Positions 5,860 to 11,843 of a stretch of DNA of 64,000 bases are shown here, in pieces (position 1 is the first letter of the stretch; each line of letters starts with the position of its first letter). A program made the translations under genes and the position numbers. Below the pieces are notes generated by a model. It saw only the letters and a list, made by a program, of their open reading frames with translations. It did no database searches and was not told the DNA's origin. Source of the stretch: an uncultured delta proteobacterium (GTDB lineage Bacteria > Myxococcota_A > Polyangia > Palsa-1104); contig CAWAWS010000007.1 in assembly GCA_963785725.1 (NCBI GenBank), positions 1 through 64,000 of the forward strand. Reading direction: 5' to 3'.

Positions 5860-6570
5860 CTATGCGGGCGCCTGTCCGCTCCAATCGATGAGCCGTAGCA
5901 CGCTGCAGTGTGGACCCGACGTCAGGCCGCGCCCATCGGCGACGAGCGCCGCCTCCTGCGAGCGCAGCCCTTCGTACACCGCGCGCTCGACGACGAACGG
6001 CTGACCACGCTCGTCGTCGGGACGGAAGCCGTCGTGCCACTCCGGCGAAAACAAGAGGTCGCCGCTCGCGAGCACGCGATCGAGCCGCAGCGTCATCACG
6101 CCCGCCGCGAAGAATGACGCCTCGTCGAGCAGCAGGCGCGCCTTCAACGCCTCCAGCAAGAGATCGCTCAATCCTGCGTCGTCGGCGACGATCTTTTCGC
6201 GCAGCTCCTCGTACCCGAACGCCACGCGCACCAGAAAGTTAGTCGCCAACGCGCGCACGCCTGCCGGCGCAGCTTCCAGCATCGTTTGCTCGAACGCGCG
6301 CACGAGCGCCTCGCCGTGCTGCCGTTCGCGCACCCGCTCTCGTGCCGGAAAGAGGCCTACGAACTGTCGCCGCTCCAGGTCGACGTACAATAGCTCCTTC
6401 TCGACGGTGAGTGGCCGCGCGCACGCCGCGCACGTGAAGACGTGTAGCCGCCTCTGCAGCAGCGCCTCCTTCAGATGCGGGTGACGTGCCGCGTTCAAGC
6501 TGTCGGCCACGAGCACCTCGAGCCGCGCGCCGCAGCGACAGTCGATGAACGCCGTGCTCGTGATCGACAT
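5860..6570 (-). CDS. CpXC-domain protein
   Basis: CRCG...DSLNAARHPHLKEALL...FTCAAC...LLYVD pattern; ATG overlaps the upstream TGA. Confidence 0.8.
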   Translation of the reverse strand: MSITSTAFIDCRCGARLEVLVADSLNAARHPHLKEALLQRRLHVFTCAACARPLTVEKELLYVDLERRQFVGLFPARERVRERQHGEALVRAFEQTMLEAAPAGVRALATNFLVRVAFGYEELREKIVADDAGLSDLLLEALKARLLLDEASFFAAGVMTLRLDRVLASGDLLFSPEWHDGFRPDDERGQPFVVERAVYEGLRSQEAALVADGRGLTSGPHCSVLRLIDWSGQAPA

Positions 6571-7193
6571 CAGCGTGGGATGTGAATGAGCCGCTTGTTC
6601 CAGGCCAAGGTGTAATCGGCGGGGATGGTGAGCACCCACTGCTCGACGCTGAGCTGCCCGGCGTCGGCGCGGCTGCCGCCGAATCCCGGCGGCGACGCGG
6701 GCGAGGCCACGTAGCTCAACACCAGCTCGGCGCGACCATCGACGAACGTCAGCTTGGGGAGAAGCTCCGGCTTGTCCTTCAGGTCGTAGAGCGACCGTTG
6801 CGCCGTCTCGGCCGGGAAGGCGCCGAAATAATAGAGCAGGCGCAGCACGCCGTCGGCGGTCGCCGTCCGTCGCCGCACGAAGTCCGACGCGCGTAGGTAG
6901 CTCGTGAGGCCGTTCGTACCCGTCTTCTCCGGCACGATCTTGCCGTCGAACACCAGCGTGTCGAGGAGGCCGTCGCTGAATCCGACGCGCAAGAGGAAGG
7001 GCAACGTCGCGATGCGATCGATCGACGTCACCTCCCAGCCCTTGTTCTTGTAATGCGTGCGCGCCGTCGTCTCTGCGGCGTGCCACGCTTGTTCGTCGCT
7101 GTTCGGGCTCATGCGCTGCTCCTTGGCGCCGATCGAGTGGTTACACCCCAGCGCCGCGAGCAGCGCCACGAGACGCGTCGCCCGCCTCACCAT
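6570..7193 (-). CDS. Hypothetical lipoprotein (candidate immunity protein)
   Basis: MVRRATRLVALLAALGC lipobox; overlaps the stop of the DUF4157 effector gene. Confidence 0.7.
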   Translation of the reverse strand: MVRRATRLVALLAALGCNHSIGAKEQRMSPNSDEQAWHAAETTARTHYKNKGWEVTSIDRIATLPFLLRVGFSDGLLDTLVFDGKIVPEKTGTNGLTSYLRASDFVRRRTATADGVLRLLYYFGAFPAETAQRSLYDLKDKPELLPKLTFVDGRAELVLSYVASPASPPGFGGSRADAGQLSVEQWVLTIPADYTLAWNKRLIHIPR

Positions 7194-9571: not shown

Positions 9572-11272
9572 GTGACGGAAGTCGTGCACGACGCCAGCCG
9601 CGGCAGCTTCGGGCGTCCCGATCCGCTCGGGGCAGCAGCCTTGGCGCCGATTGGCTCCTGCGAAGAGCTCATCACCGAGCTGAGGCGCTGTGCCGAGCCC
9701 GGCGACGACGGCGCGCGCGCGCTCGAGCTCGTGACGCGTCGGATCGTGAAGGCACGGGAGCGCGGTGTGCCGCTGCCGCTGGCCGACGCCTTCGATCGCT
9801 GGCGCCTCGCGGCTGTGGACCGGCGTATCTTGGGCGCGCTCGTCGTGGCGGCGCACGAGGGGCGCGCGTTGGCGCTCGACGAGCTGGCGGCAATCGTCGG
9901 TCCGGCGATCGCGACGGCTCGCTTGGCGGCCGCCATGCCGCTGGTTCGCCTGGCGCTCGTGACTTCCGTGGACGTCGACGGCGACACGCGCTGGCGCCCG
10001 GTGCCGCGCGTGCGGGCGCTGGCAGCCGGCCTCATCGGTCTCGCTCCCGACGTCGTTGCCGAGCTGTCGGACGGGACCGATGTCGCCGTCGATGACGACC
10101 TCGCCTTACTGGCCGATGCCTCTCGTGGCGGCGCCATCGCGCAGTCGTTGGTGCACATCGAAGGGCTGGAACGCGAGCAGGATCTGGTCGATCGGGTCGT
10201 GCGCGCGCTCGCGCGGCTGGGTCGGCGGGCGCTGGTCCTCGACGCGCTGGTCGCGCAAGCCGTTGGCCCGCTGGCGCGTGAGGCGCTGCTGCACGACGCC
10301 GTGCCGATCGTGCGCGGCGAGGCGCGCGTCGCGCACGAGCTGGCCGCGCTGATGGCGCCGGTTTTCGTCGTCGTCGGCGAGCCGTCGACGGCGGCGGCGC
10401 GGGTGACTCTGCCGCCGCTGACGAGGGCGCAGCGGGCGCGCGAATGGGCGGCTGCGATCGGCGCTCCGCTCGAGCTTCCGGCTCGCGCCACGGCCGCGCG
10501 CCTGGGCCCGTCGACCATTCGCGCCGTCGTCGCCGGGGCGCGCCGTACCGGTGAGGTCGATGGCGAGGCCATCTCGCGGACACTGACGGCGCTATGGCCG
10601 GCACCGCCGTCGGTTCGCGTCGTGGAGCGCGTCGAGCGGTGGGCCAATCTACTCGTGCCCGATGCCGTCGGCGAGCTGCTCATCGAGCTGCTGGCCAATG
10701 CGCGCACGGGCGCAGGCTTCGTCGGTCACTTCGCGGGCAGCGCGGGAACGGGGAAGACGCTCACGAGCGCGCTCGTCGCGCGCGAGCTCGGGCTGCCGCT
10801 GTGGGAAGCGTCGGCGCGCGCGCTCATTGCAGCCCCGCCGTCACCTGCGCTGCTGCGGTTCATCGACGAAGGCGCCGCCGTGTTGTCGCTGACCGACGCC
10901 GACGCGATCGCCTTGCCAGCCGGTGGCCCGAATGCTTTGGCGTTGGCGCGCTGGCTGGAGCAGACGCCGGGAATCGTCCTATTGCATAGCGGTGAGCGAG
11001 CGCGACTCGATGGAATAGTGGCCGCGCGGGTCGCGCTCACCATCGCGCTGTTGCCGCCGGATGCGGCGACACGCGCGCGACTTTGGCAGCGGGCGCTGCC
11101 CGAGCTCGGCGCTGCTGCTTCGCAATTGGCTCGACGGTCGAGCACGGGCGGGCAGATCGACCGCTGGGCCGTGCACGCGCGTCGCCTGGCGGCTCTCGAG
11201 GGTGGGTCGTTGACGATGGCCCATGTGGAACGCGCGATCGCGAGGACGACGGGGGAGCGGTATGGCGAATGA
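9572..11272 (+). CDS. Pvc15/Afp15-like AAA ATPase, degenerate
   Basis: WANLLVP, Walker A GSAGTGKT, ARELGLPL, PDAATRARLW and TGGQI match the eCIS ATPase layout; Walker B reads LTDADA. Confidence 0.7.
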   Translation: MTEVVHDASRGSFGRPDPLGAAALAPIGSCEELITELRRCAEPGDDGARALELVTRRIVKARERGVPLPLADAFDRWRLAAVDRRILGALVVAAHEGRALALDELAAIVGPAIATARLAAAMPLVRLALVTSVDVDGDTRWRPVPRVRALAAGLIGLAPDVVAELSDGTDVAVDDDLALLADASRGGAIAQSLVHIEGLEREQDLVDRVVRALARLGRRALVLDALVAQAVGPLAREALLHDAVPIVRGEARVAHELAALMAPVFVVVGEPSTAAARVTLPPLTRAQRAREWAAAIGAPLELPARATAARLGPSTIRAVVAGARRTGEVDGEAISRTLTALWPAPPSVRVVERVERWANLLVPDAVGELLIELLANARTGAGFVGHFAGSAGTGKTLTSALVARELGLPLWEASARALIAAPPSPALLRFIDEGAAVLSLTDADAIALPAGGPNALALARWLEQTPGIVLLHSGERARLDGIVAARVALTIALLPPDAATRARLWQRALPELGAAASQLARRSSTGGQIDRWAVHARRLAALEGGSLTMAHVERAIARTTGERYGE

Positions 11273-11843
11273 TGACGACGAGCTGCGACGCGATTTGGAT
11301 GCCGGTCTACGCTTCGATCACCTGCTGGCCATGGAGACGAAGCTCGACGTGCAAGAGGCGTCGACGGCGATCTATGCGCTGATGGAGGAGCTGGTCGCGC
11401 GCGGCGTGGTCGACCTGCGCGCGCTCGAGGAGCGCCGGCAGCGGCTACGCCAGCGCGAAGCCGAGCGTGCGCGCCAGCAGACGTTCGTGAACGTCGCTCC
11501 TCCAGCCGACAAGTATGCGCTCGGGACGCTGCCGCAGATCGATTGCGCGGCGCGTATCCCACTCTGCAAAGGGCGCTGCTGCCGGCTGACATTTCCGCTC
11601 TCGTTTCAGGATCTCGACGAAGGGGTCGTCAAATGGGACTACGCCCGGCCGTACCAGATCCGGCGGCGCGAGGACGGCTACTGCACGCATTCCGACGGTG
11701 AGACCCGCGGCTGCCGCGTTTATGAGCAGCGCCCTGGCATTTGCCGCACCTATGATTGTCGCAATGACAAACGCATCTGGATCGACTTCGAGGCGCGCAT
11801 TCCGGCACCGGAGTCGGCCCTCGAGCCGCAGCCGCCGAAGTGA
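11262..11843 (+). CDS. YkgJ-family (CxxCxxCC) cysteine-cluster protein
   Basis: DCAARIPLCKGRCC...YCTH...CRVYEQRPGICRTYDC; start overlaps the ATPase end. Confidence 0.85.
   Translation: MANDDDELRRDLDAGLRFDHLLAMETKLDVQEASTAIYALMEELVARGVVDLRALEERRQRLRQREAERARQQTFVNVAPPADKYALGTLPQIDCAARIPLCKGRCCRLTFPLSFQDLDEGVVKWDYARPYQIRRREDGYCTHSDGETRGCRVYEQRPGICRTYDCRNDKRIWIDFEARIPAPESALEPQPPK

Follow-up and report, generated by a model that had tools for sequence, protein, structure and literature searches.

How extracellular contractile injection systems (eCISs) choose their cargo and how the producing cell survives it are described as open questions in the available text of two accounts (PMC8213781, PMC11297309). 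The closest described effectors appear in a 2012 survey, the available text of which lists a DUF4157 domain joined to an ALF-type protease as a predicted toxin delivered by Photorhabdus virulence cassettes (PVCs), with an example from Haliangium (PMC3482391). For loading, the accessible part of a study of the AlgoCIS states that its loader Alg15 requires the Walker B glutamate (10.64898/2026.05.27.728243), and that of a study of Pvc15 reports that cargo is still stabilised by the E555Q variant, which sets a precedent for a holder without catalytic activity (PMC11495950). Here, a five-gene cassette (positions 5860 to 11843) is compared with these systems. It lies in a 64-kb stretch, hereafter the window, which forms the start of contig C7 (CAWAWS010000007.1) in the genome of an uncultured delta proteobacterium (G000; 8.9 Mb, 88% complete). 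The cassette pairs a predicted DUF4157-protease with a near-constant CpXC partner, alongside a lipoprotein, a degenerate AAA protein and a YkgJ protein. With a probability of roughly 55%, it is a stand-alone eCIS cargo module in which the CpXC protein restrains the protease.

Three genes on the minus strand encode the protease (9514-7187), the lipoprotein (7193-6570) and the CpXC protein (6570-5860), and two on the plus strand encode the AAA protein (9572-11272) and the YkgJ/CxxCxxCC protein (11262-11843). Reading the sequence bears out the five genes, the overlaps and the divergent gap described in the original prediction: protease and lipoprotein genes share 7 nt, lipoprotein and CpXC genes 1 nt, AAA and YkgJ genes 11 nt, and 57 bp (9515..9571) separate the protease ATG at 9514 from the AAA GTG at 9572. 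The protease start matches the database protein P0001; in two close homologues of the AAA protein, the start corresponds to position 9584, which would widen the gap to 69 bp. No sigma-70-like promoter was found in the 57-bp gap, and terminator-like sites were no more frequent than expected by chance; no RNA holder was listed either. In searches with profile hidden Markov models, CpXC (PF14353, E 2e-22), eCIS_core or DUF4157 (PF13699) and CxxCxxCC (PF03692, E 4e-7) scored above the Pfam cut-off and AAA below it (19.3 bits against 21.2).

The protease is a 775-residue protein predicted to join DUF4157 to a lethal-factor-like zinc protease and to act as an effector. From the N-terminus, a low-confidence segment is followed by the DUF4157 domain (9053..9283, minus strand; intact HELTH; E 4e-30 to 4e-31), a Gly/Ala linker, a helical domain and the zincin domain (together 7367..8665, minus strand) and a low-complexity tail. 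The N-terminus is likely disordered, as the AlphaFold map of predicted local confidence (pLDDT), taken alone, shows values below 50 at residues 1-32 and 53-74 and a helix at 35-60; the confident part of the model spans about residues 281-720. Scoring 8000 candidates gave 29 homologues of residues 285-740, and the HEVGH motif, a Tyr and E-W-[FW]-A-E (EWFAE in the window protein) are invariant in 30/30 homologues. These residues (H529-E530-x-x-H533, Y679 and E686) are, we assume, equivalent to the catalytic residues of lethal factor. The best fold match of the zincin domain is lethal factor (1yqy; Z 11.2, root-mean-square deviation (rmsd) 3.6, 164 residues aligned), followed by the Pro-Pro endopeptidases (PPEPs) PPEP-2 and PPEP-3 (Z 9.1), and the lethal-factor/PPEP family takes ranks 1-3 and 5-8 of the fold-match list. 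Because the PPEP proteases match almost as well as lethal factor, the fold leaves the type of target unnamed. The fold of the DUF4157 region resembles that of the VgrG2b effector domain (6h56; Z 8.3, rmsd 4.9, 124 aligned). Foldseek returned nothing for the protease model at E 0.001, and the Pfam ATLF profile was absent from the window protease and matched 1/54 family members (E 1e-4). Many homologues have a degenerate DUF4157 or none. In the close family, the proteases end, downstream of the low-complexity tail, in a conserved FPW/FAW motif (7187-7210, minus strand; HRMPFAW in the window protein), which one might speculate to be a docking or self-inhibiting peptide.

The pairing of protease and CpXC was conserved from whichever gene the loci were collected. 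Among 39 metagenome loci anchored on the protease, 23 extended at least 1.9 kb downstream, and these held CpXC (20), the lipoprotein (17), YkgJ (8) and the ATPase (8). All five genes recur together in 6 metagenome loci, in varied order and orientation, so the co-occurrence on which the original prediction depended holds. Since some loci are near-copies (L045/L046), these counts overstate independence. A second set, anchored on CpXC, comprised 45 loci: 5 from the same order and 40 of the 54 matches in a 400-genome sample of the phylum, leaving aside 14 matches mostly on short contigs and, in the order, a partial match to a CpXC-HEAT protein. The protease lay in the fetched stretch of 41/45 of these loci, and in 39 it was no more than 3 kb away; with these loci excluded from profile building it was still found in 34/45, and by the motif alone in 32/45. 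For comparison, the iterated profile and the plain motif each match a single locus, the window gene, in the whole 8.9-Mb genome. The 45 loci also held DUF4157 (11) and an Afp15-like ATPase with intact motifs (13; the genome of the window has 5 copies in 8.9 Mb); a 14th ATPase match was another AAA type. Plasmids of Alphaproteobacteria (Leisingera, Phaeobacter, Hyphomicrobiales) repeat the pairing, with CpXC directly 3' of an ALF-type protease in 4/6 plasmid matches inspected and in 4/4 alphaproteobacterial plasmid loci. Three of these proteases, from Roseobacteraceae plasmids (L148:395-5941, L149:9444-14978, L150:9303-14987), are 1844-1894 residues long, carry the protease domain at the C-terminus and lack DUF4157; the fourth was read at its C-terminal end only. 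As the pairing persists there, CpXC goes with the protease domain, and the locus counts and plasmid pairs together identify protease plus CpXC as the core of the cassette.

Two observations accompany these loci. The L148, L149 and L150 proteins share an N-terminal domain without a Pfam match, possibly an unnamed trafficking domain. In 13 metagenome loci, a gene encoding 270-290 residues (gene X; e.g., L044:3640-4464) directly follows CpXC; it had no Pfam or PDB match and was not found in the genome of the window. A prenyltransferase-like fold was considered for gene X and dropped for want of Pfam or PDB support. PDB sequence searches with alignments of the protease, CpXC, the lipoprotein and gene X returned nothing informative.

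The CpXC protein is likely the cognate partner of the protease, as a cytoplasmic inhibitor or chaperone. It extends C-terminally beyond the Pfam domain, and across 66 sequences Cys11, Cys47 and Cys50 are invariant, Cys13 is nearly so, and charged residues are conserved too. Its model is confident (pLDDT 93.5) and matched no known fold (best Z 4.0 in a wide search; nothing from Foldseek at E 0.001), which does not in itself prove a new one. Its profile picks up 652 clusters (50% identity, E up to 1e-30); no fused longer form turned up among the candidates scored, which is weak evidence. Among the pairwise structure predictions, that of CpXC with the protease domain scored 0.51, whereas the best of its three controls reached 0.00, with at least 38% of contacts shared between runs and a partner pLDDT of at least 77. 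In calibration, the mark was reached by 116/157 solved and 2/215 mismatched pairs, and passes at 0.60 or below comprised just 18/157 solved pairs and both mismatches, so a pass at the 0.51 level is more often wrong than right unless the complex was likely beforehand. Genomic linkage made this complex likely before prediction, and the result lends it weak support, compatible with CpXC as inhibitor, chaperone or substrate.

That last ambiguity leaves room for an intracellular proteolytic switch, in which the lipoprotein would sense a signal and the protease would cut CpXC or another regulator, with no injection involved. The near-constant pairing, seen also on plasmids without injection genes in their annotated flanks, would suit such a switch, as would a complex prediction blind to the difference between inhibitor and substrate. 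We consider it improbable: DUF4157 (11/45) and Afp15-like ATPases (13/45) recur beside the pair, no transcription factor or membrane sensor recurred among the cassette neighbours, and the PADLOC anti-phage models returned only a 32-residue P-loop match to IetA. A second CpXC domain of this genome forms the N-terminus of an 812-residue HEAT-repeat protein (L011:6010-8448, G000 C16), where no protease is close by and the domain is put to another use.

The lipoprotein carries a lipobox (LAALG-C), as do most close homologues, and has no Pfam match; its profile matches one locus in the genome. Among the three genes compared over 15 loci, it shows the lowest conservation (median identity: CpXC 44%, protease 33%, lipoprotein 25%). 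By analogy with VgrG2b-PA0261, it is likely a periplasmic immunity protein. Immunity to DUF4157 itself was considered and is disfavoured, because the lipoprotein accompanies proteases without a detected DUF4157 (L037, L041, L050) and stands beside none of the genome's other DUF4157 genes. In distant loci, small and often signal-bearing proteins fill its position. The rate of change of the lipoprotein also bears on whether the protease might instead be aimed at eukaryotic grazers or prey, with CpXC, lipoprotein and pseudo-ATPase helping in folding, metal loading or delivery and not conferring immunity. The best fold match is to the catalytic domain of lethal factor, CpXC with its four conserved Cys and charged residues varies less than the protease, and many PVC toxins lack immunity genes in the available text of the 2012 survey (PMC3482391). 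Against this, a linked lipoprotein that changes fast usually points to envelope immunity against sibling bacteria, and the PPEP match is nearly as good as that of lethal factor; a eukaryotic target is thus quite unlikely.

The machinery that could deliver such a cargo is encoded elsewhere in the same genome. Within the 64-kb window, no match was found to sheath, tube, Pvc16, gp25, baseplate J or GPD, in agreement with the original prediction, one version of which had the eCIS encoded at another site. Contig C13 begins with Pvc16_N, two sheath genes, two tube genes, CIS_tube and part of a GPD hub, and contig C9 ends with GPD, gp25 and baseplate J; we infer that these ends are one eCIS locus split by assembly. 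Other DUF4157 genes are scattered as well, six in number. One, far from the eCIS locus, encodes a stand-alone DUF4157-ribonuclease (L010:8069-9558, G000 C39); barstar comes next, and the two make up an ordinary toxin-immunity pair. Another protein, of 4026 residues (L007:5038-17118, G000 C33), has two DUF4157 domains and a C-terminal HATPase_c; 3' of it lie a 424-residue protein without assignment and two CxxCxxCC genes, and in the congener G028 a homologue follows the cassette (L032). Given these genes and the four Afp15-like ATPases with intact motifs, dispersed cargo is a habit of this genome. Beside the eCIS locus, several FHA and vWA-FHA genes separate baseplate J from an Afp15-like ATPase (L021:4832-9515, G000 C9). 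Away from it, a lone gene with a gp19 tube domain (307 residues) was noted about 796 kb into contig C7 (L012:8563-9486). In the phylum sample, a gp19 tube gene occurs in 34/34 CpXC-positive genomes compared with 199/400 overall, the lists having been compared by eye.

The AAA protein falls, as had been predicted, inside the Afp15/Pvc15-like group. In three trees, which held only 3-5 outgroup rows, it nests on a very long branch among Afp15-like rows, including references from annotated eCIS loci, and its best matches in its own genome are four Afp15-like paralogues with intact motifs. The part of the prediction that cast it as a loading motor did not hold, and its degenerate motifs went unnoticed in that first reading. 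Walker A is retained (GSAGTGKT); Walker B reads LSLTDADA in place of LLFDEADA, with TD for DE, and the pore loop, the sensor 1 Asn and the family motif are absent. A winged-helix Pfam match is present in cassette-relative ATPases and missing from the window's copy. The Walker B glutamate is also missing in eight ATPases of closely related cassettes; L041 and distant cassettes carry ATPases with intact motifs. On these sequence features, the protein is likely an Afp15-derived pseudo-ATPase. Without this glutamate, on which loading by Alg15 depends, it is an improbable loading motor, and the role of active loader was ruled out on the motifs. The degenerate state seems to be maintained, because a 47%-identical homologue reads DD at Walker B, with the glutamate likewise gone, and because the ratio of nonsynonymous to synonymous substitution rates is 0.26-0.47 in three pairs of cassette ATPases, like that of their neighbours (the window copy lies outside these pairs). 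With whole reading frames besides, a decaying pseudogene is unlikely. A single origin of the nine degenerate ATPases was not adopted, since their grouping is supported (96/96 and 94) but the branches are long. By BLAST, an intact Serratia ATPase (E 1e-11) matches the window protein better than the degenerate L061 copy does (E 0.005).

The YkgJ protein, which has an N-terminal extension, is an optional accessory that recurs with injection genes and is not specific to the cassette. It occurs in 10/39 metagenome protease loci and 0/45 distant CpXC loci. Twenty genome loci anchored on the subfamily held a DUF4157-protease with ATPase (2), VgrG with PAAR (2), a DUF4157 gene (2) or the ATPase (1), and the other 13 held none of the cassette or injection genes queried. 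Six earlier matches, one downstream of sheath and tube genes and one facing VgrG, included neither protease nor CpXC. An argument first made from these six, that the cassette is not conserved, was reversed by the protease-anchored loci. The closest YkgJ match comes from a metagenome-assembled genome of the Haliangiales. The view of the two Cys-rich proteins as equal accessories therefore fails, CpXC being near-constant with the protease and YkgJ optional.

Read as a cargo module, the cassette would work as follows. CpXC would bind the zincin domain in the producer cytoplasm, as inhibitor or chaperone, and the likely disordered N-terminus of the protease would serve as the loading signal. One of the four intact-motif ATPases would thread the protease into the tube, with the cassette AAA protein acting only as adaptor or holder. 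Once injected, the protease would cut a target-cell protein, probably in the bacterial envelope, because the linked lipoprotein would guard the periplasm against incoming copies. YkgJ may be an optional metal-binding helper. In a bolder version, CpXC would be dedicated to inhibiting lethal-factor-type proteases, and the cassette would be an eCIS plug-in with immunity in two compartments, through CpXC in the cytoplasm and through the lipoprotein in the periplasm, its dead Afp15 copy selecting cargo for a shared loader; this is tentative and rather doubtful.

Several points weigh against the cargo-module reading. The adaptor or holder role of the AAA protein, with an intact paralogue loading, is pure conjecture. 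CpXC is missing from 3/23 protease loci with sufficient downstream sequence and from two YkgJ-anchored protease loci, and the protease from 4/45 CpXC loci. As CpXC is more conserved than the protease, a chaperone fits as well as an immunity protein. Many PVC toxins, as noted above, have no immunity genes. Lipoprotein homologues are detectable in only 8/45 distant CpXC loci, and for the one small protein compared that fills this position, no homology to the lipoprotein was found. The co-occurrence with tube genes is confounded by kinship: within the order, the tube gene is found in 40/42 genomes and this CpXC type in 5/41 others. The genome also contains a type VI secretion system (T6SS) sheath gene, and the YkgJ subfamily stands beside VgrG and PAAR in three loci (L018, L178, L179). 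These last two points would favour delivery of the same protease-partner cassette by another route, T6SS or release by lysis, with DUF4157 and the ATPase left over or re-used. The loss of the catalytic glutamate and the degeneration of DUF4157 in many homologues, including its absence from the three alphaproteobacterial proteases, would also fit. Such a route is nonetheless unlikely, as the Afp15-like ATPase retains its motifs in 13/45 distant loci and DUF4157 is dispensable for AlgoCIS loading in the available account (10.64898/2026.05.27.728243). The eCIS GPD query was unmatched in cassette loci (VgrG/PAAR queries covered the 20 YkgJ loci only). The other structural genes of the genome, used as queries, likewise found no true match there.

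The cassette may have been acquired. Its protease profile matches 1/4 congeners, a tRNA-Arg(TCT) gene (4297-4371, plus strand), a possible integration site, lies 1.5 kb ahead of it, and the GC content at third codon positions is 0.79-0.89 compared with 0.90-0.94 in three flanking genes; together, this patchiness, position and composition suggest acquisition. No attachment-site repeat of the tRNA end was found beyond 12-nt matches. A DUF6933 gene (5205-5693, minus strand) adjoins the cassette and matches the PADLOC candidate defence model PDC-S63 (E 2e-14).

The effector type is already known from prediction; the literature searched yielded no description of the CpXC pairing, the lipoprotein family or the maintained pseudo-ATPase. 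That search, to which subscription papers and most supplements were external, found, among the papers listed and judged by title or abstract, none tying CpXC to a protease or an eCIS, and no paper joining YkgJ and DUF4157. The cassette offers a compact test of both questions raised at the outset, cargo choice and producer survival, with a cargo encoded far from the injection apparatus, two proteins that are candidates for protection and a dead loader copy that is conserved. It also provides the first likely, testable role for the uncharacterised CpXC family, as protease partner and probable inhibitor. If the bolder version above holds, CpXC would be a natural protein inhibitor of the lethal-factor protease fold, and the AAA protein would be, to our knowledge, the first pseudo-ATPase adaptor for eCIS loading.

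Among known systems, the nearest are the PVC-metallopeptidase plus Tox-ALF-MPTase toxins, exemplified by Hoch_1736 of Haliangium and compared here by description only; they share the DUF4157 N-terminus, the HExxH lethal-factor-like C-terminus and the predicted PVC/eCIS delivery (PMC3482391). The immunity listed for them is Imm-SuFu, and the available text mentions neither CpXC nor YkgJ, although its supplement may bear on neighbourhoods. The AlgoCIS cargoes Cgo1 and Cgo2, as far as the accessible text describes them, have a disordered N-terminus, likely in the cassette protease too, and share with it DUF4157 and a variable C-terminal domain (10.64898/2026.05.27.728243). Alg15 and Photorhabdus Pvc15 belong to the same ATPase group as the cassette AAA protein (10.64898/2026.05.27.728243; PMC11495950). 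According to the same partial sources, the Walker B glutamate is retained in those loaders and required by them for loading, whereas the AAA protein has lost it and the cassette lies away from structural genes. In the anthrax lethal factor and Pro-Pro endopeptidase family (ATLF, PF07737), the predicted catalytic fold and the HExxH...Y...E order are common to the cassette protease; identity is 13-14%, and no signal peptide or protective-antigen-binding domain was seen in the cassette protein. The VgrG2b-PA0261 (Tpe-Tpi) pair of Pseudomonas, a T6SS zincin toxin next to which an envelope immunity protein of low conservation is encoded, in some species a lipoprotein, resembles the cassette in the text available (PMC6899460). 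The cassette differs from that pair in its toxin domain, in having no VgrG fusion, in its extra cytoplasmic partner and, as far as compared, in an unrelated lipoprotein.

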